This document shows, one piece after another, positions 141-20,100 of a stretch of DNA of 64,000 nt. A program made the translations under genes and the position numbers. Source of the stretch: an uncultured Candidatus Saccharibacteria bacterium. GTDB lineage: Bacteria; Patescibacteriota; Doudnabacteria; UBA920. The notes under the pieces were generated by a model. The model was not told the origin of the DNA. It did not search any database and was given only the letters and a program-made list of their open reading frames with translations. The stretch lies in NCBI GenBank assembly GCA_964521955.1, contig CAZFTX010000001.1, positions 42,386 to 106,385 of the forward strand. Reading direction: 5' to 3'. The first letter of the stretch is position 1. The number at the start of each line of letters is the position of its first letter.

Positions 141-1808
141 TTATTTCTTTGTCTTAACCACCGCTTTCATAAAACCATTAAACAAAGGGTGAGGGTTTAA
201 GGGGCGAGACTGAAACTCCGGGTGAAACTGACTTCCCACGAAAAAGGGATGGTCTTTTATTTCAATTATTTCTACCAGCTTACCGTCTGGGGTAGTACCG
301 GAAATAACCAAACCTGCTTCCACAAGCTTTTCCCTAAACTCGTTATTAAACTCATAACGATGGCGGTGGCGCTCGGAAATTTTGGCTTTGCCGGTCTTTT
401 TAATCAAACCTTGTTCTAAGTAAGCTTTTTCAGTTTTAGTCCCTCTGGCAATTACGCAGTCCCAAGCCCCAAGGCGCATGGTAGCCCCATATTCGCGGTT
501 TAAGAGCATTTTTTCCTGTTCAGGCATAATGTGTATGACCGGGTTAGAACTGTTTACGTCTACCTCAGTTGTGTTGGAATTTTTTAGTTTAGCTACATTT
601 CTGGCAAACTCAATAGTTGCCATTTGCATACCGTAACAAAGTCCTAAGTAAGGCACGCTGTGTTCACGGGCATACCTTATAGCTTCTATCATTCCCTCTG
701 TTCCCCTACTCCCAAACCCCCCCGGTACAACAATACCGTCAAAACCTTTTAAAATATTTTTTGCACCTTCTTTTTCTACTTTCACCGAGTCTATCCAAAC
801 TAAATTGGCTTTAACTTTGTTATTCCAAGAAGCATGCTTAATTGACTCAATAACCGAAACGTAAGAATCACTAAGCTGAAACTTACCTACGCCAAAATAT
901 TTTCCCACCACTGCAATATTTACTTCTTTTCTCAGACTCTTAATTCCGGAAACAAGTTTACGCCATTCTTTTAAGTCTTGCTTTCTTGGCTTAAGTTCTA
1001 ACTTTTGTAAAATTAATTCAGCGGCGTGCTGTTGTTCTAAAATTACCGGGACTTCGTAAATACTGGAAACATCCGGGTTAGAAAGCACGGCTTTTTTGTC
1101 TACATTACAAAACAACGCCACCCGCTCTTTACGCCTGTCGTCCACAGGAACACTGCTTCTACCGACAATTATGTCCGGCTCAATTCCCATGGAATTCAAC
1201 ATCCGCACCGACTGTTGAACCGGCTTAGACTTCATTTCCCCTAAATAAGAAGGTATGGGCAAGTAAGCTACATGAATATGAAGTATATCTTTTGGATTCC
1301 TCAATTTCATAATTCGAGTAGCTTCAAAAAAAATAGCATTTTGATATTCACCCACAGTACCACCCAATTCAACTATACAAAAATCATAACCTTTCCCGGC
1401 AACAGTCCATCTGCGAATTATTTCGTCGGTTACATGGGGTATTGCTTCTACGTCTTCTCCGTTATATTCAAAAGCACGTTCTTTTCTTAAAACTTCTGCG
1501 TAAATTTGCCCGGTGGTTATGTAATTAGCTTTATGAATCGGTTGGTCAATAAACCTTTCATAATGGCCCAAATCCTGGTCAGTTTCCATGCCGTCTTCGG
1601 TTACAAACACTTCCCCATGCTCTTGCGGACGAATGGTCCCGGCGTCCTGGTTTAAATACATGTCCACTTTAACCGGACTGACTGAAAAACCTTTACTTTT
1701 TAAAATCACCGCTATTGAAGCAGAGGTAATCCCTTTACCAATACCGGAAATAACCCCACCTGAAACAAAAATAAACTTTGTATTTTTTTTTGTGATTTTT
1801 TTCGCCAT
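141..1808 (-). CDS. pyrG: CTP synthase
   Basis: 555 aa. N-terminal synthetase domain (FVSGGVISGIGKG) plus C-terminal glutamine amidotransferase motifs (GLCYGMQ). Full-length collinear match to PyrG. Confidence 0.95.
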   Translation of the reverse strand: MAKKITKKNTKFIFVSGGVISGIGKGITSASIAVILKSKGFSVSPVKVDMYLNQDAGTIRPQEHGEVFVTEDGMETDQDLGHYERFIDQPIHKANYITTGQIYAEVLRKERAFEYNGEDVEAIPHVTDEIIRRWTVAGKGYDFCIVELGGTVGEYQNAIFFEATRIMKLRNPKDILHIHVAYLPIPSYLGEMKSKPVQQSVRMLNSMGIEPDIIVGRSSVPVDDRRKERVALFCNVDKKAVLSNPDVSSIYEVPVILEQQHAAELILQKLELKPRKQDLKEWRKLVSGIKSLRKEVNIAVVGKYFGVGKFQLSDSYVSVIESIKHASWNNKVKANLVWIDSVKVEKEGAKNILKGFDGIVVPGGFGSRGTEGMIEAIRYAREHSVPYLGLCYGMQMATIEFARNVAKLKNSNTTEVDVNSSNPVIHIMPEQEKMLLNREYGATMRLGAWDCVIARGTKTEKAYLEQGLIKKTGKAKISERHRHRYEFNNEFREKLVEAGLVISGTTPDGKLVEIIEIKDHPFFVGSQFHPEFQSRPLNPHPLFNGFMKAVVKTKK

Positions 1809-1869
1809 AAATGTGTTTGTTATTCCTGACTTAATTAGAAATCTTAAATATTGATTAATTTAGATTAAA

Positions 1870-2091
1870 CTATTCCTGAATATCGTTTAATTGAATTTGG
1901 TTAGTTCTTACTCTATGCACAGGCAAAGCACCTTCCGTCTCCAAATACAGCTGATTGCGGTAGTAATTCTGCGTAATGTACAACACAATTAAAACTGCTC
2001 CGCTGGCAATGAAGGTAAAAATTAAAACTAAAAACAAGTTTTTTAAACGAGTATTCTCTATGGGTAAATTTGGTTTTATTGAGTCTATCAT
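1870..2091 (-). CDS. small single-pass membrane protein, function unknown (weak FtsL/DivIC-like topology)
   Basis: 73 aa. One hydrophobic helix (LFLVLIFTFIASGAVLIVLYI). No recognisable family motif. Confidence 0.35.
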   Translation of the reverse strand: MIDSIKPNLPIENTRLKNLFLVLIFTFIASGAVLIVLYITQNYYRNQLYLETEGALPVHRVRTNQIQLNDIQE

Positions 2092-2137
2092 TTTTGTATG
2101 ATTCCTTCTTAAACTTAAAAAAGTAATATTTTCTATT

Positions 2138-2584
2138 CTACAAAGCTTCTACATTAATTTTTACACTTGCTAAAACCCCGGGAGCTAGCTTTATTTTTAT
2201 AGTATGCTCACCTAAAGTTTTTATTGGCGAAGCAATTTCTATTTGGCTTTTTTCAAACTCAGTTGAATGCTTACTGTTTACCGCTACAACAATTTCTTTT
2301 TCATGAACCGCCCCAAAAATTTGACCTTTAGCCCCCACTTTTACCTTTACAGAAAAAGTCTTTTTTTCTAAGTCTTGTTTTAAACTTTGGGCGTTTAAAA
2401 TTTGTTTCTGCTTTTTAGCCTCTTGTTCCTTAGCTTCTTTATTTAAACGGTTTTGCATGTCCACAGTAGCAACCTGAGCAAAACCTTTAGCAATTAAGAA
2501 GTTCTTGGCAAAACCATCCGAAACTTCTTTAACTTCCCCTCTCCTACCCTGATTTGGTGTGTCTTTTAAAAAAATTACTTTCAT
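2138..2584 (-). CDS. rplI: 50S ribosomal protein L9
   Basis: 148 aa. N-terminal MKVIFLKD..G..GEV..V..G.ARNFL is a typical L9 signature. Confidence 0.9.
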   Translation of the reverse strand: MKVIFLKDTPNQGRRGEVKEVSDGFAKNFLIAKGFAQVATVDMQNRLNKEAKEQEAKKQKQILNAQSLKQDLEKKTFSVKVKVGAKGQIFGAVHEKEIVVAVNSKHSTEFEKSQIEIASPIKTLGEHTIKIKLAPGVLASVKINVEAL

Positions 2585-2887
2585 ATAAATATAAGCCCAA
2601 TAAATTAAAAAATCTCGCCATGTGCGAGAGTCCGTTTAGCCCATTTACCTCAAACAACTTTTGGGCTCTTTTCTAGTATACTTAAATTTTAAAATAATGC
2701 AAATGTTATCCGCTGATACGCTGATTACTGCAGATTACACAGATTTTAGATAAAACTTTTAGAATCTGTGTATTTGCTTGTTTTTGCAACGAGGACTGTT
2801 TGAGCCCCACTCTTAATACAAAGACGGGGCGAGTTCCGCAGTAAAAAAACAAGCAAGTATATAGATTATTTAAAACAAACTAAACAA

Positions 2888-3811
2888 CTATATCTTTAAA
2901 TACTTACGTATAGCCATCATTGTAGAAACTATGGATAGCAATAAAGAAATTACTATCAACATAGCCAACAAATACCAATAACTAAAAACGTTCTGATTAA
3001 AAATAGTCAGTTCGGGGTTAATGAAAATGGCCACCTTAGGCATTATGCGGGTAAACACAGGTATAAACAAAAGTGCGGTAATTACCGTAGCAAAAATACT
3101 ATAAAGCATACTTTCCACCAAAAACGGCCCGCGAATATACCAATTAGTTGCACCCACTAAACGCATAATTTCCACTTCTTCTTTACGGTTGTAGATAGTC
3201 AAAGTAATGGTGTTAAAAATAACTAAAATAGCAATTAAAGAAAAGATTCCAATTAAACCCACGCCAAAAGAAACAATAAACTTCAAAATTCTATTCAGTC
3301 TCTCAATGGCACTTCTGGTTCTTTCGTCTTCATAACTTACTTTATCAATAAAATCCTGATACTTTTGATCTTGCAAAATTTCATGAATTTGAGGATAGTC
3401 CGAAAGTTCAAAAGCTTTAACATTCAAAGTTGCAGGCAGCGGGTTTTCTGTAAGTTCATTTAAAGAAGCTTGTATGAGAGGATCGTTTGCATGTTTCACT
3501 TTGAAGTCTTCAAAAGCTTGAATCGCACTGGTATATTTTATTTCTCTCACCTTTGGGTTAGATTTAATTTCGTCCTGAATACTAAAAATCCTTTCCTCAG
3601 CAAGGCCAATTTTAAAGTAAACACTTATATCTACGGTGTTCTCTATGGTTTTAAGCGAATAACTGGTGATTGCAAAAAGTAAGAATAAAATAGAAAAAAT
3701 TACCAAAGTTATACTCATAACCATGGTTGCGGTTGCTGAAAGCCAGAGATTGCGCCAAAAATTTACAAACCCGGTTTTTATAATTCTAAAAAATGAAATA
3801 GAGTCCAACAT
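2888..3811 (-). CDS. ftsX: cell-division ABC transporter permease FtsX
   Basis: 307 aa with four TM segments and a periplasmic loop. Lies directly downstream of ftsE. Confidence 0.85.
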   Translation of the reverse strand: MLDSISFFRIIKTGFVNFWRNLWLSATATMVMSITLVIFSILFLLFAITSYSLKTIENTVDISVYFKIGLAEERIFSIQDEIKSNPKVREIKYTSAIQAFEDFKVKHANDPLIQASLNELTENPLPATLNVKAFELSDYPQIHEILQDQKYQDFIDKVSYEDERTRSAIERLNRILKFIVSFGVGLIGIFSLIAILVIFNTITLTIYNRKEEVEIMRLVGATNWYIRGPFLVESMLYSIFATVITALLFIPVFTRIMPKVAIFINPELTIFNQNVFSYWYLLAMLIVISLLLSIVSTMMAIRKYLKI

Positions 3812-3927
3812 AAAAAATTTCTAATTAACCTAATATCTAATTATTCTAAAGAAATCAGAAACCCAAATGTTCTAAACTTAGAGCAATTAGGTCAATTAGT
3901 CCGCCAACTGGCGGAACTTAGAATAAT

Positions 3928-4605
3928 TTACAACTTATATTTACCTTTTTCTTGCTCCAAAGTAACTTTACCGTCTTCTATGGTAATAACTCGTTTTTTT
4001 ATTTTATTTACCAAATCGGCCGCGTGAGTAGCAAGAATAACCGTGGTTCCAAGGGTATTTATTTTTAAAAGTAAATCCAAAACTTCTTGGGCGTTTATTT
4101 CGTCCAAATTACCAGTTGGTTCGTCAGCCAAAAGTAAAACCGGCCTGTGAGACAAAGCCCTGGCAATTGCAACCCTTTGCTGTTCTCCTCCCGACATTTG
4201 AGTGGGAAAACTGTCATGTTTACGAGAAAGTCCCACTAAGTCTAAAATTTTCGGAACATCTTCAATAATTTTAGACATTTTATGCCCACAAACTTCCATA
4301 GCAAAAGCTACGTTTTCAAAAGCTGTTCTTTTCGGTAAAAGCTTAATATCCTGAAAAACTACCCCAATTTTTCGCCTTAAGTAAGGTAAGTCAGTTTTTC
4401 TTACCAAAGAAATGTCTATATCGTCAATTAAAATTTTCCCCCCATCTATACCTTCTTCCCCAATTATCAACTTTAAAAGCGTGGATTTACCGGCGCCACT
4501 TCTACCCACAAGCGAAACAAACTCTCCATGATGAATGTCTAAATTCAACCCATGCAAAGCCTTGTTATTTCCGTAATGTTTAGTAACGTTTTGAAATTTT
4601 ATCAT
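3928..4605 (-). CDS. ftsE: cell-division ATP-binding protein FtsE
   Basis: Walker A GRSGAGKST, ABC signature LSGGEQQR and Walker B LLLADEP. Start moved to the MIKFQNV methionine, because the longer ORF reads into a GC-rich structured spacer. Confidence 0.9.
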   Translation of the reverse strand: MIKFQNVTKHYGNNKALHGLNLDIHHGEFVSLVGRSGAGKSTLLKLIIGEEGIDGGKILIDDIDISLVRKTDLPYLRRKIGVVFQDIKLLPKRTAFENVAFAMEVCGHKMSKIIEDVPKILDLVGLSRKHDSFPTQMSGGEQQRVAIARALSHRPVLLLADEPTGNLDEINAQEVLDLLLKINTLGTTVILATHAADLVNKIKKRVITIEDGKVTLEQEKGKYKL

Positions 4606-4805
4606 AAGAAACCACTCCGACGTCCGCCAAAGGCGGAGTCCGGAGCCCCGATCCAAAGGCGTCGGGGCAGAGACGAAGATTACACAAATACTTCAAGATG
4701 TATTATACCAAATTTATAAAAATGATAAAAGAAAATTAGGTCGCCTTTACTTAACAACAAAGTTATGATTAAAAAACTTACCGCACCAAAGTCGAAAAAG
4801 ATGCG

Positions 4806-6346: not shown

Positions 6347-6677
6347 ATTGTCTGGCTTCATCTAAAGCTGAAAAAGAAAAAATATCCTAATCCAGTCCCC
6401 AGGCCAAGCCGAGGAAAAATTTGTGGCGTCTTAAAACGCACTAAAGCCAGACAAGTAGTGTCTATCCTTTCTAAACTCACTTCTTAAAAGCAAAAGCTAT
6501 TTAAGAACTCTGGTTTAAAAAGTAAGGATTTCGGCGACCCTAATCCGTGGACAAGAGTGCATTAGCCTAATTTCCTTTTAAGTATACAGTAATTGTGGAT
6601 AACTAAAAAATTTTGCGAAGCAAGTATCAAGTATAGAAACATATGCAGAGGAAGTAATAAAATTTAAACAAAACAAA

Positions 6678-6730
6678 AGGACTTGGGAATCAAGAATCAA
6701 AAACAAATAGATTCATGATCCCAAGTCCTA
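6678..6730 (-). promoter_or_regulatory. stem-loop immediately 3' of the VR (DGR target-recognition hairpin)
   Basis: Inverted repeat aggacttggg(a)atc ... gat(c)cccaagtcct, a roughly 13-bp stem around a 25-nt AT-rich loop, about 15 nt beyond the target stop. It is absent from the TR copy. Confidence 0.6.
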
Positions 6731-6742
6731 AGTATCGAGCGA

Positions 6743-6875
6743 CTACGAGAAGCGACCCACGGCCGAACCGAAGCAGTGAAAGGCATCATCGGCCCAACCG
6801 CTGCCGAAGCCGAGCTCGTCATCGCTCCAGTACCAGAACAGCGAGTCGACGAACTGGTCATCGGCAACCGGGGCG
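6743..6875 (-). repeat. DGR variable repeat (VR) at the 3' end of the target gene, including the conserved IMH-like block
   Basis: The VR encodes ...VADDQFVDSLFWYWSDDELGFGSGWADDAFHCFGSAVGRFS*. Every TR AAC (Asn) position is a different residue in the VR. The last 27 nt (cttcggttcggccgtgggtcgcttctc on the coding strand) are identical in TR and VR and GC-rich, as expected for the conserved 3' IMH block. Homology stops there. Confidence 0.85.
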
Positions 6876-7866: not shown

Positions 7867-8066
7867 TTGACCTCCTTAGTGGTCTGTTGTGTGCAAGTTG
7901 ATTTAGCCACGAGGACAAGTCCCCGAAGCTGGTTCTCACTTCCGATGAAATGAGCGTTCCGGCTATCAAAATCGCCAGCAAGAACGCTAATTTCAAAGGT
8001 TTAAAATTAGCGTATAATTATACCTGTTTTTTTAACTCCTGTCAAGGACTCCCTTTTCACAGAAAT

Positions 8067-9158
8067 TTACTTGGCAGTTTTTTCCAAATATTTTCCCACA
8101 AATTCGTCTAACTCCCCTTCTAAAACACCTTCAGGATCAGTTGACTCAAAGTTAGTTCTGTGGTCTTTAACCATTTTGTAAGGATGCAGAACGTAAGAAC
8201 GAATTTGGTTTCCCCATTCAGCGGACTTAAACTCACCCCTTAACTCAAGCTTTTCTTTTTGCAACTTTTCTTCTTCTAAAGCTTTTAATTTAGACATTAA
8301 AATTTTCATAGCCAATTCACGATTTTGATGCTGGCTTCTTTCATTTTGAATATTCACCCTTATTCCGGTTGGAATATGAGTAATGCGTATGGCCGAATAT
8401 GTTGTGTTTACACTCTGTCCCCCGTGACCAGAAGCCGTATTGGCTTCAATTTTTAAATCCTTAGGATTAACTTCAAACTTTTCTTTTTCTTCCAAAACCG
8501 GAAGTAGCTCTAAAAGCGCAAAAGAAGTCTCCCTTGTATGAGCCGGATTAAAAGGTGAAAGCCTAACCAAACGGTGCACCCCCGCTTCGCTTTTAAAAAG
8601 TCCGTAAGCAAAAGGACCTTTTACTTCCACCACTGCCGTTTTAACTCCGCCTTGTTCACCCTTTGAAAGTTCCAAAATTTCCGTGCTAAAACCTTTTTTT
8701 TCACTGTAACGCAAAAACATTCTTAAAAGCATCCCTGCCCAGTCTTGTGCATCTACCCCGCCGGCGCCACTGTGAAGGGAAAAAATTGCGCTATGGTCGT
8801 CATACTTTTTAGACAGCAAAGCCACAAAACGGTTTTTACTATACTCCTTTTCCAAAGTTTCAACTTGCTCTTGTAAATATTTTTTTGTTTCTTCTGACTC
8901 GTCTGTATTTTGCTTAACCAAATTTAAAGTTTCCTGAATATTTTTTTCTAAAGTATTCCAAAACTCTACAAATTTTTGCAGTTGGTTAAACTCCTGAGAA
9001 ATACTCTGTGCATGCGCGGAGTCGTTCCAAAAGTCAGAACCCTGCATTAAGTCTTGCAATTCCAAAGCTCTCTGCTCTTTTTGCGGCAGGTTTAAATGTG
9101 ACTTTATTTCTTCAACTTCTAAAAGTAGCTTTTCTAACTTTGAAATCAAATCTTTCAT
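8067..9158 (-). CDS. prfB: peptide chain release factor 2
   Basis: 363 aa. GGQ motif (ASGHGGQSVNTT) and the RF2-type SPF tripeptide region (RLSPFNPAHTRETSFA). Single uninterrupted ORF; no +1 frameshift site is evident. Confidence 0.85.
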   Translation of the reverse strand: MKDLISKLEKLLLEVEEIKSHLNLPQKEQRALELQDLMQGSDFWNDSAHAQSISQEFNQLQKFVEFWNTLEKNIQETLNLVKQNTDESEETKKYLQEQVETLEKEYSKNRFVALLSKKYDDHSAIFSLHSGAGGVDAQDWAGMLLRMFLRYSEKKGFSTEILELSKGEQGGVKTAVVEVKGPFAYGLFKSEAGVHRLVRLSPFNPAHTRETSFALLELLPVLEEKEKFEVNPKDLKIEANTASGHGGQSVNTTYSAIRITHIPTGIRVNIQNERSQHQNRELAMKILMSKLKALEEEKLQKEKLELRGEFKSAEWGNQIRSYVLHPYKMVKDHRTNFESTDPEGVLEGELDEFVGKYLEKTAK

Positions 9159-9294: not shown

Positions 9295-10038
9295 CTACAA
9301 ATTTGGTTTTAAATCTTTTAAAGCAATTCTTCTCACCAAATCCCAAAGCTGATTATGAACCTCTAACGGAGTTAAAAGTCGGCCTTCAAAAGCGCATTCT
9401 AAAAGCTTTGTATTAGGAAAGAGCTTTGCAATTTCCAAATAAGCCTTTTCCGCTTCAATGGCATGACCTTTTTGAGACTCTAAAATATCCGGTTTTCTTT
9501 CCCATGCGCTACTTTTGCCAGATTTATATCTTTTGCTTAAAAGTTTACCTGCTAAATTTGCAGGCATATGCAAAATAATGTTTAAATCCGGCTTAGGCAC
9601 CTGAAATGTTTTGTATTCCAAATTATCCAACCATTTAAAAAACTTGACTCTTTCAACTGAATCGGAAAATTTTGCTCCTTGATGTCCGGCATTTGCAGTA
9701 ACATACCGGTCCGAAACCACAACCTTACCTTCCTTTAACCACTCTCGAATTTTAAAACCAGCATCAAAACGATCCACTGCAAAAAATATGGAAGCTGCAT
9801 AAGGATTTAGCTCACCATACTTACCACTTAAATACTCTTCTAAAACTCCGGCTGACTTTTCTCCGTATTGCGGAAATTTAATATATACGGCATCAAACCC
9901 TTCCGTCCTCAAAGTTTCCACCAACATACTTGCTTGAGTGGACTTTCCACTACCATCAGGCCCATCTACAACCACAAATCTTCCAAATTGTTTTTCAGGA
10001 ACTTTAGATTTCTTTTTCATTCCAAAGGGAAGTTTCAT
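9295..10038 (-). CDS. tmk: thymidylate (dTMP) kinase
   Basis: P-loop VVVDGPDGSGKSTQ, LID-like region and DRY motif (VVSDRY). Confidence 0.8.
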   Translation of the reverse strand: MKLPFGMKKKSKVPEKQFGRFVVVDGPDGSGKSTQASMLVETLRTEGFDAVYIKFPQYGEKSAGVLEEYLSGKYGELNPYAASIFFAVDRFDAGFKIREWLKEGKVVVSDRYVTANAGHQGAKFSDSVERVKFFKWLDNLEYKTFQVPKPDLNIILHMPANLAGKLLSKRYKSGKSSAWERKPDILESQKGHAIEAEKAYLEIAKLFPNTKLLECAFEGRLLTPLEVHNQLWDLVRRIALKDLKPNL

Positions 10039-10039
10039 A

Positions 10040-10576
10040 TTATGTAGTTATTATTTTTTCTAGTTTTTCGTACAGTTCCTCTAAACTGCCTATGTTTTCA
10101 ATTTTAAAATCTGCCTGCTTGCCCAAAACCGGAATATTTATTTCTGTTGGTTCTTGTTCCTGTTTTAAAAAACTCTCAAAATCCATACTGGCGTCATCTT
10201 GCTTTTCATGTCGGTTTTGGTAACGCTCAAACCGTATATTCACCGGTGCAGTAATATAGATTATTTTAGCCCCTATTTTTTTAATGTCTTCCATTTCATC
10301 CATGCGAATGCCGTTAACAACTACCAACCTTTCGTTAGCATCCAAAACCCTTTTTACCACAGCGGGCCCTAACACAGAACGTCCAAAAATATGCCTTAAA
10401 CCTAAACCTAAGTCTATTTCATTTCTTCTGGATATGGGCAAATTTAAAATACCCAAAATCTCGTCCAACAAATGACTAAAACGCACATGCTTTGCACCAT
10501 GTTTTTTTTCCAAATAATTTGCCACTGCGTCTTTGCCTGCAAACTTCTCCCCTACCAAACCAATAATTGTTTTCAT
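10040..10576 (-). CDS. deoxynucleoside-monophosphate kinase, phage T4 gp1-like
   Basis: P-loop GLVGEKFAGKD. The C-terminal IENIGSLEELYEKLEKI closely resembles the T4 gp1 C-terminus (ITNDGSLEELFSKIKN). Start moved to MKTIIG. Confidence 0.55.
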   Translation of the reverse strand: MKTIIGLVGEKFAGKDAVANYLEKKHGAKHVRFSHLLDEILGILNLPISRRNEIDLGLGLRHIFGRSVLGPAVVKRVLDANERLVVVNGIRMDEMEDIKKIGAKIIYITAPVNIRFERYQNRHEKQDDASMDFESFLKQEQEPTEINIPVLGKQADFKIENIGSLEELYEKLEKIITT

Positions 10577-10666
10577 ACAAAGTAGTATAACACGTGTAAA
10601 ATGTATGGAAAATACCAAAAAAGCCTTTAAAATAGTCTAAATTAATAATATTTGTTAAAATAAATC

Positions 10667-11263
10667 ATGACTTTAAAACGAGATCTAGAACTTTTGTATG
10701 AAGTGGGCAGTTTAAGGTTTATTGAACGTGCCTGGAAACAATTTTTAAACCCAGATTATGCTAACTTAGCCGAACATCATTTAAGAGTTATTTGGATTGC
10801 CCTTTTGCTTGCCAAATATGAAGGCAAGGGTAATGTGGAAAAAATCATGAAAATGGCTTTAGTACATGACGTAAGTGAAAGCCGTACAGGCGACGTAAAT
10901 TACATAGGCAGACAATATACCCAAAGAAATGAGCATAAAGCCATTAAAGACATATTTCATAACACAGAACTTGAAAAAGAAATGATTGCCTTATGGAATG
11001 AATACGAAGAAAAAAAGACTATTGAAGCTCAAATAGTAAAAGATGCCGATTTTTTGGACGTGGATTTAGAAATTAAAGAACAAAAAGCAAAAGGTAGAAA
11101 TCACATGAAAGCCTGGGAACCAAATCGCAAAATAGTCTACAATAAACTTTTTACCAAATCAGCAAAAAAAATCTGGAAAGCAATCCAAACTTCCAAACCG
11201 GAAGACTGGTTTATTAACTCGCCAAACCGCTTTAACGAAGGTGACATGAAACCAAAAAAATAA
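10667..11263 (+). CDS. HD-domain 5'-deoxynucleotidase (YfbR-like)
   Basis: H..HD..E..GD motif pattern (HHLRV...VHDVSESRTGD) of YfbR-family HD phosphohydrolases. Confidence 0.7.
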   Translation: MTLKRDLELLYEVGSLRFIERAWKQFLNPDYANLAEHHLRVIWIALLLAKYEGKGNVEKIMKMALVHDVSESRTGDVNYIGRQYTQRNEHKAIKDIFHNTELEKEMIALWNEYEEKKTIEAQIVKDADFLDVDLEIKEQKAKGRNHMKAWEPNRKIVYNKLFTKSAKKIWKAIQTSKPEDWFINSPNRFNEGDMKPKK

Positions 11264-11305
11264 TCTGTAGACATCCGTAGTTTTATAATTAATAAATCTG
11301 TAGCA

Positions 11306-11995
11306 ATGCACTCATACGAAATTGAAATCAAATCCTTACTTGGTGGCAAAGAAAAAGCAGATGAACTTTTAAGTAAAATGAAAGCTATTGACCCAGGCCT
11401 GATTGAAGTTGGTAGCCACAAGCAACTTAACCACTACTTTGTGGGTGGTAATTTACAAACTCTATACGAAAAAGTTAAAGAATTTTTAACCGAAGAAGAA
11501 CAAAAACGTTTACTAGATATTTCTGAAAAAGCAAAAGATTTTTCTGTACGTACCCGCCAAGCAGACGGCAAGATTATTTTGGTTATAAAAGCTTCGGTAG
11601 ACGATACTACCAGCTCAAACGGTACGGCTCGCTTAGAATTTGAAGCCAAACTAAATAACTTTACACTTAATAAACTTGATCAACTTTTACTTGACGCTGG
11701 TTTTGCCTACCAAGCTAAGTGGTCCAGGGAAAGACAAGACTATTTATATCATCCCAAAAACAGGCAGATTAGCGTAAGTATAGACAAAAACGCTGGTTAC
11801 GGCTTTCTTTCTGAATTTGAAGTTGTGGTAAATGACGAATCTAAAACAGAAGAAGTTAAAAATTTTATCCGCGAATCCATGAACGAACTTGGCATAACTG
11901 AACTTAACCAAGACCGTTTGGCCAGAATGTTTGAATACTACAACAAAAACTGGGAACAATATTACGGAACTGAAAATATATTTAATATTGAATAA
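11306..11995 (+). CDS. CYTH-domain (triphosphate tunnel metalloenzyme) protein
   Basis: N-terminal YEIEIK (the ExExK signature) and later acidic strands, consistent with a CyaB/ThTPase-like fold. Confidence 0.65.
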   Translation: MHSYEIEIKSLLGGKEKADELLSKMKAIDPGLIEVGSHKQLNHYFVGGNLQTLYEKVKEFLTEEEQKRLLDISEKAKDFSVRTRQADGKIILVIKASVDDTTSSNGTARLEFEAKLNNFTLNKLDQLLLDAGFAYQAKWSRERQDYLYHPKNRQISVSIDKNAGYGFLSEFEVVVNDESKTEEVKNFIRESMNELGITELNQDRLARMFEYYNKNWEQYYGTENIFNIE

Positions 11996-12003
11996 CAAAA
12001 ATC

Positions 12004-12972
12004 ATGAACAAACACCCGGAGTTTCAATATCTGGATCTTTTAAGAGAAATAAAAGAAAAAGGTTTTAGGAAAGTCGATCGCGGCACGGGCGATGCTTCTT
12101 ACAGTTTATTTGGCAAACAAATCCGCTTTAACCTTTCAGAGGGTTTTCCCATGCTTACTACCAAAAAAGTGTTTTGGAAAGGTGTAGTGGAAGAACTTTA
12201 CTGGTTTATGTCCGGTCAAAGCAACGTCTCTTACCTAACTAGAAAAGGTGTTCACATTTGGGATGACTATCCTTTTAAAATTTATAAAGAAAAAGTCAAA
12301 GTCGGCAAAATGCCGGAAATGTCTAAAGAAGAGTTTGTAAAAAAACTCGAAACCGACGACAGCTTTGCCAAAGAACACGGAGAACTTCCCCGTATTTACG
12401 GAGAACTTTGGCGCCGTTGGCCAACACGAACTCCGGGAAAAACCGTTGATCAACTCAAGTGGGCAATTACCGAAATTATGGAAGACCCAAACGCTCATAA
12501 CTGTATTGTAAATTCCTGGAACCCGGAATATCTTTACACCATGGCCGAATTTGAAGACGCTGCCCGCTACCCTATTTGTCACAACATGTTCCAAATAAAC
12601 CAAATTGGCGGAAAGCTTTCTTTAAACCTTTACCAAAGAAGTGCGGATATTTTCTTAGGTGTACCTTTTAACATTGCCTCTTACGCCCTCCTCACTCTCA
12701 TTCTTGCTCAAGTTACGGGTTACGAGCCCGGGGAGTTTGTACACACTTTTGGGGACGTTCACATTTACGAAAACCACATGGACCAAGTTACCGAACAACT
12801 TTCAAGAGAACCCAAACCTTTACCGAAAGTTGTACTCGACCCTACCATTAAAAATATTGACGACTTTAGACCTGAACACATAAAGCTAGAAAATTACGAA
12901 TCACACCCGGCTTTAAAGGCTGAACTTTCAGTTTCCGGAGGGTTCTTTGATAAAAGTACCAAAAAAAACTAG
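12004..12972 (+). CDS. thyA: thymidylate synthase
   Basis: RYPICHNMFQ (catalytic Cys), YQRSADIFLGVPFNIASYALL and HIYENHMDQ. The Asn in FNIAS indicates dUMP specificity rather than dCMP. Confidence 0.95.
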   Translation: MNKHPEFQYLDLLREIKEKGFRKVDRGTGDASYSLFGKQIRFNLSEGFPMLTTKKVFWKGVVEELYWFMSGQSNVSYLTRKGVHIWDDYPFKIYKEKVKVGKMPEMSKEEFVKKLETDDSFAKEHGELPRIYGELWRRWPTRTPGKTVDQLKWAITEIMEDPNAHNCIVNSWNPEYLYTMAEFEDAARYPICHNMFQINQIGGKLSLNLYQRSADIFLGVPFNIASYALLTLILAQVTGYEPGEFVHTFGDVHIYENHMDQVTEQLSREPKPLPKVVLDPTIKNIDDFRPEHIKLENYESHPALKAELSVSGGFFDKSTKKN

Positions 12973-12981
12973 TTATTTTTC

Positions 12982-13665
12982 ATGATTAAACTTATTGCTT
13001 TTGACTGGAATGGAACCATACTTTCAGACACTCTAGCTTCCTTAAAAGCCGACAATCAAGTTTACAAAGAGCTTGGAATAAACAAGAAGGTAACAATGTC
13101 TGAGTTTAGAAAAGCATTTAGAATCCCAATAATAAACTACTGGACAAACCTTGGTCTAGACAGAGAATATTTTGTAAAAAACGGTGAGCTAATTCATTCA
13201 ATATACGAAAAATACTATGAACTTTTTGAAAATAAAACCAGAACCAGAGCCGGAATTAAAGTATCACTTAAATGGCTCAAAAAAAATAAAATCGAAAGTA
13301 TAATTTTTAGTAACCACATTATCCCTAACATAAAAAGTCAACTTCACCGCTTAAAAATCCAAACATTGTTTAAAGAAGTCTTAGCAAGACCTGTTAATTC
13401 TGTAGACCACTTACATAACCGCAGTAAAGAAGCGAAGCTTAAAAACTATATCGACCAAAATAAAATAAAACCCGAGGAGGTCATTACTGTTGGCGATACT
13501 GACGAAGAAATAGAAATTGGTAAATTATTTGGCTATCATACCGTTGCAATTTCAGGTGGTATGCAAAATACTGCGTATTTAAAATCTCACAAGCCAGATT
13601 TTCTCATACACAACATGAAGGAGTTAATTAAAATAGTAAAAATTTTAAATGAATCCAAAAATTAG
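12982..13665 (+). CDS. HAD-superfamily hydrolase (phosphatase or nucleotidase-like)
   Basis: Motif I FDWNGT (a DxN variant) and motif IV VGDTDEEIE. Sits inside the dTMP-synthesis cluster. Confidence 0.55.
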   Translation: MIKLIAFDWNGTILSDTLASLKADNQVYKELGINKKVTMSEFRKAFRIPIINYWTNLGLDREYFVKNGELIHSIYEKYYELFENKTRTRAGIKVSLKWLKKNKIESIIFSNHIIPNIKSQLHRLKIQTLFKEVLARPVNSVDHLHNRSKEAKLKNYIDQNKIKPEEVITVGDTDEEIEIGKLFGYHTVAISGGMQNTAYLKSHKPDFLIHNMKELIKIVKILNESKN

Positions 13666-14134
13666 CTTAGTTGTTGCCATTTCAAAAAATCGGGCAATTG
13701 GCAAAGACAACAAATTACTTTTCTACATCCCCGAAGACTTAAAAAGGTTTAAAGAAATAACAAAAAACCACCCCATAGTCATGGGGGGAAGAACCTATGA
13801 GTCCATTGGCCATCCACTCCCCGACCGCACTAATATTGTTATTACCAATGACCCTAACCTTAAAGCCAAAGGCTGTGTGGTTTGTCATAGTGTGGAAGAA
13901 GCCTTAAAAGAAGCAAAAAAGCTTAACACTGACGAAATTTTTATCGTCGGTGGGGGTAAAATTTACGAACAAATCATGCCTCTTGCCAATAAGCTCTATA
14001 TAACTGTCATAGATACCATAGTAGAAGACGCTGACACTTTTTTTCCAGAATATTCAGAATTTACTAAAATTACCAAAGAAGAAAAAAAACAACACAACGG
14101 CCTAAACTATACTTTCTATGAACTAGAAAAATAG
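13649..14134 (+). CDS. folA: dihydrofolate reductase
   Basis: 161 aa. ISLVVAISKNRAIGKDNKLLF..IPEDLKRFKEITKNHPIVMGGRTYESIG is canonical DHFR. Confidence 0.9.
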   Translation: MNPKISLVVAISKNRAIGKDNKLLFYIPEDLKRFKEITKNHPIVMGGRTYESIGHPLPDRTNIVITNDPNLKAKGCVVCHSVEEALKEAKKLNTDEIFIVGGGKIYEQIMPLANKLYITVIDTIVEDADTFFPEYSEFTKITKEEKKQHNGLNYTFYELEK

Positions 14135-14238
14135 ACCGCTGATCTTTTAACACACACTGATAACACAGATATTGCAAAATTAAACTATCTGTATTATCGG
14201 TTTCATCAGTATTCAAATCCAAATCCGTATCATAAAAT

Positions 14239-15153
14239 ATGCAAATACTACAAATTATTCTTCCCACGTTTCTAATTATTGGTTTAGGATACATGGGGAA
14301 AAAATACAAAATTGTGGAAGAGTCTTGGGTTCACGCCCTAAATGGCTTTGCCTACTACGTTGCCTTGCCGGCAGTGGTAATTTCTTCGCTTTGGCAAATA
14401 AACCTTTCCGGCCAAACCTTAAAAGTTCTTTTTTACAACGCTTTGGTTATAGTTTGTTTTGGTGCCTTAACCATGCTGGCTTTAAGCTTAACTAAATTAA
14501 AAAAAGAGCAAAAAGCCGCGTTTTTGCTTATTGCTGTAGTCGGAAACTCCATTTACATGGGCTTCCCTATTGCACAAACAACTTTCGCCGGACATGTTTT
14601 CCCACTTATTGCCGCCGCAGGAACTATCCAACTGGTCTTAGGCATTGCTTTGGGGCTTTTAGCAGTTGAACACTGGAAAACCCATACCCACGGAGTCAAA
14701 ACTTATTTAAAAGACTTTTTCTTAAATCCGCTAATTTTAGCTTTACTTGCAGGCTTAATACTTTCGTATTTAAACTTTTCCGGATCCGGAATTGAAGTCT
14801 TAAAGAAAACCATTAGCTCTTTAGGCTCTACAGCCTCCCCAGTTGCGCTTTTCTCTTTAGGCGCTTTTATTTATGGTAAATATTCAAAAACCAATTTTAA
14901 ACTACTTGCTTACGCAAGTACTGTTAAGCTTATACTTATACCAATTTTTGTTTTCTTCTTTTTAAAATGGATCCAACCGGATCTTTTTATAGTAAACTCT
15001 GCTTTCCTGCTTGTGGGCATGCCGGCAGCAGCCACCACTTTTGTATTGGCTGAAAAGTTTAAACTAGACAAAACTTTTGTAGCCGAAGGCCTACTTGTCA
15101 CCACCGCGCTTTCTTTTGTTTCTATAAGTATACTTCTCTCATTTTTGCTATAA
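14239..15153 (+). CDS. AEC-family transporter (auxin efflux carrier / malate permease-like)
   Basis: 304 aa, about 10 TM helices, N-terminal ILPTFLIIGLGY typical of the AEC family. Confidence 0.6.
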   Translation: MQILQIILPTFLIIGLGYMGKKYKIVEESWVHALNGFAYYVALPAVVISSLWQINLSGQTLKVLFYNALVIVCFGALTMLALSLTKLKKEQKAAFLLIAVVGNSIYMGFPIAQTTFAGHVFPLIAAAGTIQLVLGIALGLLAVEHWKTHTHGVKTYLKDFFLNPLILALLAGLILSYLNFSGSGIEVLKKTISSLGSTASPVALFSLGAFIYGKYSKTNFKLLAYASTVKLILIPIFVFFFLKWIQPDLFIVNSAFLLVGMPAAATTFVLAEKFKLDKTFVAEGLLVTTALSFVSISILLSFLL

Positions 15154-15195
15154 AATAATCTTATTTACATTTAAAAAAGTAGTTGGAAATTCCAA

Positions 15196-15774
15196 CTACT
15201 TTTTTCTTACCTCTTGTGTAAGTTTAGAAGCTAAAGGTGAAGTTTGTCCTGCATATTTATTTCCCTTTTTTTTATAGTAAGGAACGTCTACCGGACTGGA
15301 CATTTCTTCAAAAGTAAAAGCGCAAATTCTCATACCAGGATACAAAGCTACCGGCATGACCCCTAAGTTCCCTAACTCCATTGTAGGTTTACCTATCCAG
15401 CCGGGATGAAAAACCGAAGCGGTACCGTGAACAATTATCCCCAACCTACCTAAAGAACTTCGCCCTTCAATACGGCCTAACAAGTCGTCCGACAACACCA
15501 AAGTTTCAACTGTAGTTACGAGTGCAAAATCCCCGGGTTGCATTATAAACGGCTCACCTTTTTTTACTACTATTTCTTTCATTAACTTGTCAGTATCCAC
15601 AGGCCCGGCTAAGTCTATGTAAGGATAAGAAGAATGTTTAAAAACCCTAAAAACATTACCCAAATGCAAGTCTATCATACAAGCATCCAATTGAGTTTTT
15701 AGGTCGGGCTTAGGAGTAATTTTTATCCTGCCACTAATAAGAGCTTTTTTTATGTCTCTGTCAGAAAGTGTCAT
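15196..15774 (-). CDS. dcd: dCTP deaminase
   Basis: 192 aa with full-length similarity to Dcd (GWIDPGF-like GWIGKPTMEL and the conserved Ser/Arg/Glu region). Confidence 0.85.
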   Translation of the reverse strand: MTLSDRDIKKALISGRIKITPKPDLKTQLDACMIDLHLGNVFRVFKHSSYPYIDLAGPVDTDKLMKEIVVKKGEPFIMQPGDFALVTTVETLVLSDDLLGRIEGRSSLGRLGIIVHGTASVFHPGWIGKPTMELGNLGVMPVALYPGMRICAFTFEEMSSPVDVPYYKKKGNKYAGQTSPLASKLTQEVRKK

Positions 15775-16134
15775 ACTTTAAGTTAAAATTAATTACTTAG
15801 ATATTCTACTATACTTATTTATATGAGTCTACATTATCATACATCAGCGCTATCTGCTCCTATCAGAGAATCCGCGGACGTTTTATTGACAAAATTTAAA
15901 GCTTAATATAACATAACTGCAATATGTTCATATTCACTATTTCCCCAATTAAGAATGCAATGAAGTCTTCCTTGAAGACCATGCTTTTGGGGTTAGTCAG
16001 AAAATGAAACTTTAACCAAAATAAATTTTCTAAAACCAACCCCTCAAGCATAGCTAAAGAAGAGGGGTTTTATAATACTTACATTTCCACTTGCCGAAAG
16101 CACTTTTAACAAAAAAGTTTTTTCGGGAGGTGGC

Positions 16135-16423
16135 AATGCCAGAGCCATTCAAAGCTAAGGTTACGGCTATGGATCGGGGCCTTTACTGGATACAACCAGT
16201 AGGAATGAACGAACAAGCCAGGGTGACAGTCATAGCAATCAAGCATGGACGCAACGAAACGCTCTTGATTTTCCACCCGGCAATACCCGCCGGGCAACCG
16301 AAGGGCGAAGTACAACATTTCAGCGCTGTGATCCCGCGAAACTCGGAACAGCACACAACTTGGTGCTTACCGGGAAAACTCTCTGAAGAGGAGTACAAAA
16401 AACTTACTCCGAAAGAGGAGTAA
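16135..16423 (+). CDS. hypothetical small protein (GC-rich island 2)
   Basis: GGAGG 5 nt upstream of the ATG. Local GC about 50%. No family match recognised. Confidence 0.45.
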
Positions 16424-16766: not shown

Positions 16767-17090
16767 ATGAACACACTTAGTTTTTCGGGAGATGGCCTCA
16801 TAACGCTTCAAGAACAGCGAGCGTTACTAAGCCGCCAAACCTTCCGGATCGTAGCCGGTCAAAATGAACAAGCGTTCTCCGTGGTTTCAGTCAGCCAGCA
16901 TTCTGTTGGCATTTTCTTAGTGGAATTAGTACACCAAGACAACATTCCCTGGTATGGAATCTTGATGATTCAGGATAATCCCGGACAAACAATCATGGTC
17001 CTACAATCCGAAGCGCCACAAGACCGCAACGATTGGAACCGTCTCATTCACCAGGCCAGGCTGATTTCCCAAGGCAACCCCAACCACTAA
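16767..17090 (+). CDS. hypothetical small protein (GC-rich island 2)
   Basis: GAGAGGAGAGG SD-like purine run before the ATG. 107 aa with no recognised domain. Confidence 0.45.
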   Translation: MNTLSFSGDGLITLQEQRALLSRQTFRIVAGQNEQAFSVVSVSQHSVGIFLVELVHQDNIPWYGILMIQDNPGQTIMVLQSEAPQDRNDWNRLIHQARLISQGNPNH

Positions 17091-17100
17091 GCAAAACGAA

Positions 17101-17140
17101 AATCGGCGCCCTCCACATGGAGGCGCGCCGATTTTGATTT
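17101..17140. terminator. bidirectional rho-independent terminator
   Basis: cggcgccctcc-acat-ggaggcgcgccg GC-rich hairpin flanked by gattttgatttt. Lies between the convergent 16767..17090 (+) ORF and the giant gene (-). Confidence 0.6.
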
Positions 17141-20100
17141 TAATCATCTAAAGATATATTTTGATTCACTACGCCTTGATTGTCTACTTTTATTATCTGA
17201 TTTTTCAACAAAATAACTTTATCTTCAACTGTCTGCATTACCCTAAGTATATATTCCCCTTTTGGCGCTTTTAAGAAAAATCTTCCTTTTTCATTTGTCA
17301 TTGCCTTACCCAATACAACAGAGGGGATTGATTTAGGACTAATCTCAATTATTAAGAAGTGTGTAGGATGATTTTGGCTAGTTAAGGAGCCCCAAAGTTT
17401 ACGATGTGGAATAAACCTTTTTAGAACAAATAATAACCCAAAAACACTCACAAAAATTAAGCCAAATAAATTTGGTTTCAACAACAGAGTCAGAAGGGAA
17501 AAACTTGCACTTCCCCAAAATATTATTTCAAGAATCACATGAAAGAAAGTTTCTAAACGTGGATGGAAATTTACATATTTTAACTTACCAGTCTGGTTCC
17601 AATCAAATGCTAAAGGGTCCATGGGAATATTCGGTGACAATACTTCCCCACTTTTTGTAATTTGCATTAATTCACCATGATATAAATTATCAAAAACCCC
17701 GTCCATTTTACCCAAAATCCTAACAGAAGGAAATTGATAATTGGTTTTTTTTGCTTTTATCAAAAAATTTCCTGGCTTATCCATAAAACCAAAACGTCCG
17801 CTTAAATCGGTTATGGCTTGCTCCGTAACTTTACCTGTTTCAAAATTTATCATTTCTACAATTACTGGATCCAAAGGCTGCTTAGTAACAGAGTCATACA
17901 CTGTACCCCAATAGCGACGTCTTCGTCTTAAACCAAAACTACTCATTAAACCTTGTAATGTCGCAACAATATGGAGCCAAAATTCGGTTAAATTGGTAAA
18001 GTTACCAAGCAACCCATATTTTGCCAAACTATATTCCATTACCAAAGAAGAAGGCGCTACAACCAAAGCAGAAACTGAAACTGCTAATTTTGTTTCAAAT
18101 TCTTGTAAAAATAAAGTACTTCCTTGTTTTAGAATTTTTTCTAAAGGTTGTATTGAAGTCTTGGAAACTGTAACTATTGTATCCTTAATAAAGTTGCCGG
18201 CGCTACTCAAACCTGAAACTAAGCCTTCTGAAACCGAAGCTACACTACTGGAAATGTTTTCAAATAAATTTGCTAAAGGTAGGTTGTTTGAAAGAGGCCC
18301 AGGACTAGCATCTGGCACTGGGGGAGTGTTTTGAGGAACCACCACTACAGGAGTTTCAATAGGTGGGTTTTCAATAACAACCACGGGAGGAGAAACTTGT
18401 GGCTCAACAACATTTACCAGTGCATCTTCAGCAGGTTCAACCAACACGCTAGCAAAACTTTCTACACTATTTACACCTCTCGTAACTTTAACTCTTATAG
18501 TATAAGCACCCGCTTTTGCAAAATTACAAACATTTCTATGAGTAACAAATTCGTTAGTTGTTCTTCGGGTTAACTCGTAAATGCCGTCATTTGTACAGTC
18601 ATACTCATAAGTAATTTGCCCTTTTGCTGTCCCAGAAACCGCAACTCTTAAACTTACGTTATTTAAAGGCTCCTCCCCAACCAATTTATCTGACCAAATC
18701 TTGCGATCCTTAGAAACAGTTAGTATAGCTGCTAAGGGCAAATTTTCAACCAAAGGAGGGTTAGGAGTTGGAGTTTTATCTTTAACCAAAAGCTGAATAC
18801 CGGAACTCACAGTTTGTTTTGCTTGCATTTGACTATTAAAATATTTTACATAAACTGTATAAAAACCAGCTCGACATGTTTTTTGTTCACACAAATTCCA
18901 CTGAGTGGACGTTGTGAATAATTGCAAAACCGCATTTTTAAAATCTGGCGTGTTTGAAATTGCCATATATGCAGTATCTGCGGTCGCTTGAAGAGTTAAA
19001 GTAGTTAGACTATCTACAGTTGTGCTCGCTCCAGCGTTTATAACTACACCAAATCCTCCCTCTAAAGGAGTTGGTACACCACCACCACCTCCGCCTCCTC
19101 CACCGCCTCCAGACCCTTCATCGTCTAAAGTGGAACAAGCAGCTGTTGACTGAGTTGTTGTTGAAGTGTAAGCAGTTTCTATATCACTACTGTTTCTAGC
19201 TTTAACTACAAAATCATATGAAGTACCACAAGTCAAGCCAGAAAAAATCTGAGATGTTGAAGAGCTCCAATCAGGACTAGTTGATGCAGTTGCATTTAAA
19301 ACATAGTATTCTGTCCCTGCCGGATTACTATTTGCATTCCACGAAGCAGTCAACTGTGTTTGAGAGTCTTGATTTAGACTTAAAGAAGTTGGTAAGTTTG
19401 CCAAAGTATAAATTGAAATTGTGACAGTAGAAGCATAATTACCGGCAACATCAAACACGTCGGCATAGAAGGTATAGGGAGTATTGGGAGTTAAGCCAGA
19501 AGAAAGCCAAGACAAAGCAGAAGTCGCGGAAGAATTTGTACCTGTAGTGGAGTTATTAAAAACGTAAGAAGCTGTTGCCAAACCAGACAAAGAATCCGAA
19601 GCTCCTGAAATTGTGGCCGTCAAAGAAGTTGGTGAGGTAGTTGCTAAAGTCAAACTACCTGCAGTAGGAACGACAGTGTCTAACTTAAAAGCAACCGCAC
19701 CAGAATTAGCTGTAGCATATGAAGAATTGGCTCCCAAATTATCTATAGTTTTCACTCGCCAATAATAACCATCTGAAGAATCGCTTAAAACCTGTCCAGT
19801 TGTACCCGTTGTGTAAGTTCCCGTACTGGTTGCTTGCCCAACTGTAAAACTAGCGCTACCTTGAGTCGCTGTTGCCGAAGTATAATCCAATAACAAAGTA
19901 GAAAAAGAGGAACTTGTAGAAATTTCAATCTTATATCGCACCGTATTGCCAACATCAGGGTCAGTAAGATTGAAAGTAAAAGTAGGAGTATTATCGTTTA
20001 TCCAACTTCCACCCACAACCGTTGATGGCCCAAGCGAAGTTGGGCTATTGGGTGCGTTATCAGAAATTAAGCTTAACTCTGGTAAATTTGCATACGAATC

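Follow-up and report, generated by a model that had tools for sequence, protein, structure and literature searches.

We report that a cluster of deoxynucleotide genes in a 64-kb stretch of DNA (the window) from an uncultured Candidatus Saccharibacteria bacterium, assigned by GTDB to the Doudnabacteria, appears to be one copy of an island for deoxythymidine triphosphate (dTTP) synthesis that is inherited vertically across a Patescibacteria clade comprising the Doudnabacteria and relatives; that the region belongs to a conserved island is near certain. An open reading frame (ORF) listing and family scans (Pfam, NCBIfam/TIGR) of the window proteins recovered every gene named in an initial annotation of this DNA, packed in one 6.5-kb cluster: tmk (dTMP kinase), a P-loop kinase that we call the orphan kinase, an HD_3-family phosphohydrolase, a CYTH enzyme, thyA, a HAD hydrolase, folA, an AEC transporter and dcd. 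In the arrangement that we propose, a fixed backbone of orphan kinase, tmk, prfB, ftsE, ftsX and pyrG would face an exchangeable module that provides dUMP and turns it into dTMP, made up in the window of HD_3, CYTH, thyA, HAD, folA and the AEC transporter, plus dcd. We give a probability of about 0.6 to this composite reading, in which the orphan kinase would phosphorylate (deoxy)nucleotides alongside Tmk; the catalytic assignment of the kinase within it stands at roughly even odds.

The case for a conserved island comes from synteny. A scan of GTDB species representatives yielded 50 species-level loci, in all of which ORFs were called and classified by phmmer using the window proteins and those of relatives as queries. 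Nearly all of these carry Patescibacteria-type labels (Doudnabacteria, 'Patescibacteria group', Daviesbacteria and the automated label 'Saccharibacteria'), the exceptions being two short contigs labelled Planctomycetales and Chloroflexia and a few labelled 'bacterium'. Across the 50 genomes the kinase is 48–69% identical to the window protein, and tmk directly follows it at every one of the 45 loci with a visible downstream gene. The gene order kinase-tmk-(x)-prfB-ftsE-ftsX-(rplI)-pyrG does not vary along the backbone and is also that of the window. Compared with their window counterparts, the kinases have a median identity of 61%, the Tmk proteins 59% and the PrfB proteins 75%. Between locus types (described below) the kinase is 53–56% identical, versus 55–61% within them, and Tmk and PrfB are likewise equal. 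The module behaves differently: identity between types falls to 49% for ThyA, 40% for FolA and 43% for Dcd, versus 58–84% within types (63–79% for ThyA and 73–84% for Dcd, which thus forms lineages specific to each island type). This difference indicates that the backbone is orthologous and fixed in place and that the module has been replaced. The wiring had initially been described as unusual; given its fixed position in 50 species-level genomes and the lack of any phage signature, the cluster is instead typical housekeeping of the lineage and no oddity of the window genome.

A defence-system reading was also tried and rejected, as the kinase has only a marginal PADLOC match, the HD, CYTH, HAD and Dcd proteins have none, and the synteny is that of core housekeeping genes. 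Separately, a more distant family member in Gracilibacteria (L058, 6001-6543) is divergent to dnaE; its translation with table 11 does not match the query, which may reflect the alternative genetic code reported for Gracilibacteria.

Four dUMP-supply variants occur beside the kinase: dcd and CYTH with or without HD; dcd and dut; dCMP deaminase, kinase and dut; and ThyX and MazG. The first defines type A loci, to which the window and 18 others belong (dcd > [AEC <] folA < [HAD <] [NDT-like <] [NUDIX <] thyA < CYTH < [HD_3 <]). Among the related loci, type B has the order dCMP deaminase > AAA_17 kinase > dut > kinase > tmk > thyA > folA, and type C the order dcd > dut > kinase > tmk > thyA > folA. 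The window ThyA is of a long form of 314–348 aa, a separate ThyA lineage from the 270–309 aa form that mostly occurs in types B and C. Type D is represented by a distant homologue (L059) with the order rplA - kinase - dCMP deaminase - AAA_17 kinase - ThyX - Tmk - MazG, where ThyX replaces ThyA and FolA and MazG occupies the dUTPase slot. Because this locus keeps the kinase beside ThyX, Tmk and MazG, the link between the kinase and dTMP synthesis survives replacement of both ThyA/FolA and Dut. The type D genes span 1324-6194 of L059; there the kinase homologue is 390 aa long, with a 200-aa low-complexity N-terminal extension, and ThyX is 455 aa long.

CYTH and dut appear to exclude one another. 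Among the 44 loci with at least 3 kb visible upstream of the kinase, dut alone is present in 24, CYTH alone in 18, both in none and neither in two (naive Fisher p 2e-10). The loci are not independent, with about three CYTH/dut switches needed by Fitch parsimony on a rough neighbour-joining tree of the kinase and Tmk, so the exclusivity is suggestive rather than proof. Where CYTH occurs it lies directly upstream of thyA, in dut-less loci only. On the grounds that CYTH and dut share a slot and never co-occur, CYTH may be a dUTPase replacement. A literature search for CYTH enzymes in connection with dUTP or thymidylate found nothing relevant, and we know of no characterised CYTH enzyme with a link to thymidylate synthesis or dUTP.

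Several further features of the related islands deserve mention. Many CYTH-type islands carry a NUDIX hydrolase gene and a nucleoside 2-deoxyribosyltransferase (NDT)-like gene (PF05014, below cutoff) between thyA and folA; this pair is seen, for example, in L003 (4797-5596), L004, L008, L011 and L012 and is absent from the window. Type B islands (L001, 8305-9951; L005, 6370-7945) have a ComEB-like dCMP deaminase followed by a separate AAA_17 kinase. Against models of anti-phage dCTP deaminase, the latter hits the kinase-like region (NF041025, 9e-8; PADLOC dCTPase, 8e-11) and the former the deaminase region, so that on sequence the pair is a putative split, housekeeping-context counterpart of the fused anti-phage enzyme. 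Rare fusions join the orphan kinase to dUTPase (P0169/P0276, 376–378 aa) and dUTPase to Tmk (P0399, 392 aa). Rosetta-stone use of the kinase–dUTPase fusion was set aside as weak evidence, since a single two-sequence cluster, from contigs of 1.3–1.9 kb, accounts for it.

We now turn to the orphan kinase, which had been described as a phage T4 gp1-like deoxynucleoside monophosphate (dNMP) kinase on the strength of its C-terminus. That likeness is real and beyond chance: IENIGSLEELYEKLEKI in the kinase matches ITNDGSLEELFSKIKN in gp1. In a pairwise BLASTP comparison with gp1 (gp1 sequence checked and identical to 1DEK) only the C-terminal 92 columns align, at 26% identity (E 2e-5), and hhalign of the kinase family profile against gp1 covers 61 columns at a probability of 93% (E 3e-7). 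A weaker form of the C-terminal motif is present in dephospho-CoA kinases and in the archaeal UPF0200 protein SSO1041, so that on its own the motif does not single out gp1. Further affinity comes from family models. The whole-protein score against Pfam DNMK (PF21448) is 27.4 bits versus a cutoff of 27.1, though no single stretch passes and only the P-loop (residues 4–41) aligns; SSO1041 has no match to this model. The phrog_139 profile, which holds gp1 at 2e-65, matches the window kinase over its full length at 3e-17, SSO1041 at 8e-10 and the E. coli dephospho-CoA kinase CoaE at 6e-7.

The best profile and fold matches are nonetheless cellular. Searched against PDB sequences, a profile of 35 homologues matches SSO1041/UPF0200 over its full length at 8e-15, gp1 in three short pieces at 6e-5 and dephospho-CoA kinases at 2e-3 to 5e-3; the hhalign probability is 98% for SSO1041 (163 columns) and 12% for E. 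coli CoaE. Sequence and fold match UPF0200/PRK08356 over the full length, but the PRK08356 equivalog score is 79.8 bits versus a cutoff of 189, which marks a related yet distinct subfamily. The nearest relative of the kinase is thus the cellular archaeal family UPF0200 (SSO1041), itself without an assigned function, and the affinity of the kinase to the gp1/DNMK family is remote but real and more than generic. The gp1-like description therefore holds for a specific gp1 affinity and fails for overall placement and architecture. At E<=1e-3 an exhaustive profile search retrieved 5,397 family representatives (50% identity), and homologues at 55–91% identity number in the hundreds in the protein database; these come from Patescibacteria metagenome-assembled genomes and are labelled 'dephospho-CoA kinase', 'AAA family ATPase' or 'hypothetical'. 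Literature searches on the function of UPF0200/SSO1041 and on dNMP kinases in the candidate phyla radiation found nothing relevant.

Comparison of residues separates a shared catalytic core from a divergent architecture. The P-loop reads GEKFAGKD in the kinase and GVKRSGKD in gp1 (G-x-K-x-x-G-K-D), whereas SSO1041 and CoaE have GxxGSGKS loops. Across the 35 homologues G9, K11, G14, K15 and D16 are invariant, as are the LID arginines R115, R118 and R122 and residues R91, E94, T144, E145 and N161. Ligand-binding residues of gp1 were taken from Table 2 of PMC10653934 and mapped through HMMER local pieces and BLASTP, global hmmalign being unusable owing to the large insertion in gp1. Thirteen of the 17 alignable ligand residues are conserved in the kinase, most of them invariant (K10→K11, G13→G14, K14→K15, D15→D16, R177→R91, E181→E94, T208→T144, E209→E145, N223→N161, G225→G163, S226→S164, L227→L165 and L230→L168); Arg11, Asp175, Arg197 and His206 are the four without conservation. 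Of the two equal-size domains of gp1, domain 2 is a five-helix 'myoglobin-like' unit that carries Lys37, Arg68, Arg132 and Met135 (PMC10653934). This region (gp1 residues ~35–165, about 120 residues, including these four and other ligands) has no counterpart in the kinase, for which the AlphaFold2 (AF2) model places only three short helices (33–79) between strands 2 and 3. The kinase instead has a three-helix nucleoside monophosphate (NMP)-binding subdomain and a long LID with the three invariant arginines. It is thus best described, from its sequence features, as a predicted compact P-loop kinase of UPF0200 architecture with a gp1-like catalytic core.

The proposed pathway connects these genes. 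Gene families, packing, pairing and motifs are observed, while the flow between the enzymes follows textbook knowledge. CTP from PyrG would give rise to dCTP, which Dcd would deaminate to dUTP. The step from dUTP to dUMP has no canonical enzyme at the locus; CYTH/HD_3 or a bifunctional Dcd might perform it. In a PDB search Dcd is about equally close to the E. coli enzyme (3e-42) and to that of M. tuberculosis (9e-41), the latter bifunctional and dUMP-forming, so that similarity is uninformative on whether the window Dcd is mono- or bifunctional. ThyA would then convert dUMP to dTMP with FolA recycling dihydrofolate, and Tmk would phosphorylate dTMP to dTDP. In this proposal the orphan kinase belongs to the UPF0200/DNMK branch of P-loop kinases and uses ATP to phosphorylate (deoxy)nucleotides; it would be co-expressed with Tmk and act on a deoxynucleotide of the pathway, with dCMP/dUMP, dGMP or dTDP as candidates. 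A more specific and rather doubtful proposal is that CYTH is a non-orthologous dUTPase replacement in the dut-less island and that the kinase is a dedicated deoxypyrimidine nucleotide kinase. CYTH, alone or with HD_3, may convert dUTP from Dcd to dUMP for ThyA, or may clear the triphosphate by-product of an HD-type dUTP hydrolysis, and the kinase and Tmk may together complete the dTTP or dCTP supply of reduced genomes.

The initial annotation went further on the kinase and suggested that the wiring was possibly phage-derived, such that a broad-specificity gp1 orthologue acquired from a phage would have rewired deoxynucleoside triphosphate (dNTP) synthesis in the window genome. The DNMK score just over the cutoff, the phrog_139 match, and the GxKxxGKD P-loop and C-terminus in common with gp1 are consistent with such an origin. 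So is the island set of thymidylate synthase (TS), dihydrofolate reductase (DHFR), dCTP/dCMP deaminase, dNMP kinase and, in dut-type loci, dUTPase, which parallels the dNTP-synthesis genes of T4. Nevertheless, tblastn against 50,697 phage genomes returned no relative of the kinase at E<=1e-3, a pattern and tblastn scan of IMG/VR returned none, fold matches in BFVD are all generic P-loop kinases at <=26% identity, and CYTH has no PHROG match. The kinase also diverges at a rate equal to that of tmk and prfB in a syntenic position fixed across 50 species, its best matches are cellular, and it lacks gp1 domain 2. Recent transfer from a phage is thus already largely refuted, and we consider phage acquisition very unlikely overall. 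Still less probable, to the point of being a marginal prospect, is that the protein is a dephospho-CoA kinase, as the JGI and UniRef labels of many homologues would have it. Source names and weak matches to TIGR00152 and PDB dephospho-CoA kinases point that way, but the TIGR00152 score is 18 bits versus a cutoff of 65.55, PF01121 does not match, the hhalign alignment with E. coli CoaE is confined to the P-loop, that loop reads GKD instead of GKS/T, and the gene always adjoins tmk inside a dTMP island.

Two other roles keep the kinase in deoxynucleotide metabolism. It might serve as a stand-in nucleoside-diphosphate kinase (NDK) or a dedicated dTDP kinase, so that in genomes lacking ndk it and Tmk would carry dTMP through dTDP to dTTP. 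Its invariable pairing with Tmk across a 1-nt gap and the absence of ndk from the 64-kb window, the stretch that the search covered, fit this role, which would also explain why the kinase is retained whatever the dUMP route. The conserved residues map, however, to the monophosphate-binding pocket of gp1, and we know of no member of the UPF0200/DNMK clade that phosphorylates diphosphates; we therefore regard this role as quite unlikely. The kinase might alternatively be a nucleotide-sensing or regulatory partner that controls flux through the island, comparable to the kinase-like N-terminal domain of anti-phage dCTP deaminases. It weakly matches that region of PADLOC 'dCTPase' (E 1e-3, residues 3-176 to 155-330), the paralogous AAA_17 kinase beside dCMP deaminase matches the same domain far better, and dCTP depletion by the defence enzyme requires the nucleotide-binding motif of its kinase domain (10.1101/2021.04.26.441389). 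Against a regulatory role stand the invariance of the full catalytic complement (P-loop Lys, Asp and LID arginines), the marginal quality of the match and a locus that is core housekeeping and no defence island, and its chances seem small.

The composite reading of a fixed backbone, an exchangeable module and a (deoxy)nucleotide kinase beside Tmk also has points against it. A dTMP-kinase role for the orphan kinase would be redundant, because a canonical Tmk adjoins it, and its substrate stands as a list of candidates only. The gp1 ligands of the dNMP phosphate, Lys37, Arg68 and Arg132, sit in the helical domain that the kinase lacks, and the closest solved structure is 3lw7, an AMP co-crystal of a protein of unassigned function. 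The Gracilibacteria homologue adjoins dnaE instead of tmk, the kinase–dUTPase fusion is known from just one two-member cluster whose contigs are short, and cmk, ndk and dut are all missing from the 64-kb window, to which that search was confined.

The layout of the locus is given in the table.

Features of the dTTP-synthesis island and its backbone in the window (positions are those of the window)
Feature	Position	Strand	Family evidence and remarks
pyrG (CTP synthase)	141-1808	-	Pfam match; syntenic backbone
rplI	2138-2584	-	Pfam match; syntenic backbone
ftsX	2888-3811	-	Pfam match; syntenic backbone
ftsE	3928-4656	-	Pfam match; syntenic backbone
prfB	8067..9158	-	PCRF and RF-1 domains; first backbone gene downstream of tmk
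tmk (dTMP kinase)	9295..10038	-	PF02223 1.9e-21, 77 bits (cutoff 27)
P-loop 'orphan kinase'	10040..10576	-	178 aa; predicted compact nucleotide kinase of the UPF0200/DNMK clade
Divergent intergenic region	10577..10666	.	90 bp, separating the kinase-tmk and HD-CYTH-thyA operons
HD_3/YfbR-like HD-domain phosphohydrolase	10667..11263	+	PF13023 1.6e-27, 96.8 bits (cutoff 22.5); PF12917 5e-10, 39.8 bits (cutoff 25.9)
CYTH/triphosphate-tunnel metalloenzyme	11306..11995	+	Conserved C-terminal helical extension
thyA (thymidylate synthase)	12004..12972	+	Long form, 322 aa; PF00303 3.5e-95; TIGR03284 351 bits
HAD-superfamily hydrolase (HAD_2)	12982..13665	+	PF13419 2.8e-18, 67 bits
folA (dihydrofolate reductase)	13649..14134	+	PF00186 8.3e-54; 17-nt overlap with the HAD gene
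AEC-family (Mem_trans) membrane transporter	14239..15153	+	PF03547 5.7e-32
dcd (dCTP deaminase)	15196..15774	-	TIGR02274 181.4 bits (cutoff 92.8); convergent with the transporter

The cluster was initially taken to begin at 10040; tmk is present as stated but lies just outside that interval. Although the window Tmk passes the Pfam cutoff, it scores below those of NCBIfam (TIGR00041, 67.3 vs 83.25; NF005923, 112.9 vs 193), and by sequence it is a probable dTMP kinase, divergent yet recognisable. The tmk start codon lies 1 nt after the stop codon of the kinase gene, so the two genes are probably co-transcribed and translationally coupled. Although the longest kinase ORF starts from a TTG (10618), alignment with 35 homologues favours the ATG at 10576, the start that had been used originally. 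In a promoter and terminator scan, promoter-like hexamers, which occur on both strands of the divergent intergenic region, are no more numerous than in shuffled sequence, and terminator-like sites exceed that expectation only slightly (10 vs 5.7 ± 2.8). The further backbone genes ftsE, ftsX, rplI and pyrG fall within 141..4656 (-) in the same order as in related loci, and a window-wide gene search found no homologues of dut, ndk, dCMP deaminase, NUDIX or NDT in the 64 kb.

On the opposite strand the spacing from HD_3 through CYTH, thyA and HAD to folA is 42, 8, 9 and -17 nt. The HD_3 protein matches oxetanocin-like protein 1xx7 (4e-13), HDDC2 (5e-11) and YfbR (5e-7) in the PDB. It had been called an HD 5'-deoxynucleotidase, and membership of the HD_3/YfbR-like Pfam families is borne out; the YfbR NCBIfam equivalog scores only 36.7 versus a cutoff of 122, so the substrate is not assured. 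CYTH has both the N-terminal ExExK motif and the eight-stranded tunnel fold, and catalytic motifs are intact in the kinase (P-loop Lys/Asp and LID arginines), in CYTH (ExExK and others) and in HD_3. The DxN motif reported for the HAD protein is confirmed as FDWNGT in motif I, kept in 7/7 homologues; D-W-N-G-T departs from DxDx[TV], in which the second Asp is the general acid/base, and the threshold of the fold family is passed. The AEC transporter is found at an equivalent position in L039, L041, L045 and L051.

Other elements of the window were also noted. A diversity-generating retroelement lies between ftsE and prfB (4806-7996, -). It consists of an RVT_1 reverse transcriptase (4806-5852), a 160-aa ORF (5879-6361) that has no family match but is placed like an Avd gene, a template copy of the repeat (6217-6344) and a variable copy (6745-6872) that forms the 3' end of a 417-aa ORF (6743-7996) with a GC content of 55–62% versus 37% for the genome. 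The 128-nt repeats are 84% identical, and at each internal mismatch the template has an A where the variable copy has a different base. Two ORFs of ~110 aa follow dcd (16091-16423 and 16767-17090, +); they have no Pfam match, lie where GC is slightly elevated and are also annotated as genes by the Logan assembly (L006). A giant ORF of 2,869 aa (17140-25749, -) with an N-terminal signal-like segment, long Ser/Thr-rich repeats, a Gly run and C-terminal membrane segments presumably encodes a surface protein.

Patescibacteria are thought to depend on scavenged nucleotides, and the conserved kinase–tmk pair with its interchangeable dUMP modules shows which steps of dTTP synthesis these reduced genomes retain. 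The island also exposes an enzyme family without an assigned function. The label 'dephospho-CoA kinase' on many of its homologues is very probably wrong and could falsely credit organisms with a step of CoA biosynthesis in metabolic reconstructions. The kinase further suggests that archaeal UPF0200 proteins, phage dNMP kinases and the anti-phage dCTP deaminase domain belong to one deoxynucleotide-specialised clade. We see the best leads in the substrate of the kinase and in the possible substitution of CYTH for dUTPase, the exclusivity of CYTH and dut providing a concrete hypothesis for a new CYTH substrate.

Comparison with known systems places these findings in context. Like T4 gp1 (PDB 1DEK/1DEL; PF21448; phrog_139), the kinase has the P-loop Lys at position 3 and the Asp after GK, equivalents of the gp1 ligands from Arg177 to Leu230 listed above as conserved and a C-terminal I-x-N-x-GSLEEL helix, and it sits in a pathway with TS, DHFR and a deaminase (dUTPase being confined to the related dut-type loci). 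In contrast, gp1 is 241 aa long versus 178 aa, has a short loop in place of the long Arg-rich LID and is a phage protein, whereas the kinase is cellular, vertically inherited and neighbour to a canonical Tmk. SSO1041 (archaeal UPF0200, 'adenylate kinase-related', PDB 3LW7/3H0K) and PRK08356 resemble the kinase in size and full-length architecture, including the three-helix NMP-binding subdomain, the LID and a D/N-G-[VI]-R...E motif; SSO1041 differs in its ordinary P-loop and lacks the T-E motif and the DNMK match. CoaE differs in its failed family thresholds, P-loop and unrelated gene context.

The N-terminal domain of anti-phage dCTP deaminases (NF041025/PADLOC dCTPase) shares with the kinase a broad UPF0200-like clade and a connection to deoxycytidine nucleotide deamination, but the window kinase matches it marginally and has no defence context. 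SSO1041 and the AAA_17 kinases of type B and D loci also match this domain, a hint that the UPF0200-like clade as a whole handles deoxypyrimidine nucleotides. Among the module enzymes, the window HD_3 protein has the fold and HD motif of the YfbR/HDDC2/OxsA phosphohydrolases. CYTH resembles characterised triphosphate-tunnel metalloenzymes (CyaB class IV adenylyl cyclase, thiamine triphosphatase and YgiF tripolyphosphatase) in its fold, ExExK motif and paired acidic and basic strands, and differs from them in its place directly upstream of thyA.

The closest functional precedent is a gp1-like dNMP kinase (dNMPK) in a genomic island of P. putida that supplies essential TMPK activity; 667 BLASTp matches with a dNMPK annotation, mostly from Pseudomonadales, were reported in the non-redundant protein database (PMC10653934). 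Finding a phage-type kinase in a cellular genome is thus no novelty in its own right, and the P. putida enzyme shows that a gp1-family kinase can take part in a bacterial housekeeping dTMP pathway. That enzyme is of the two-domain gp1 type, resides on a mobile island and replaces a disrupted tmk, whereas the kinase described here is compact, core-syntenic and coexists with tmk. These three features, together with the lack of phage relatives, set the present case apart.

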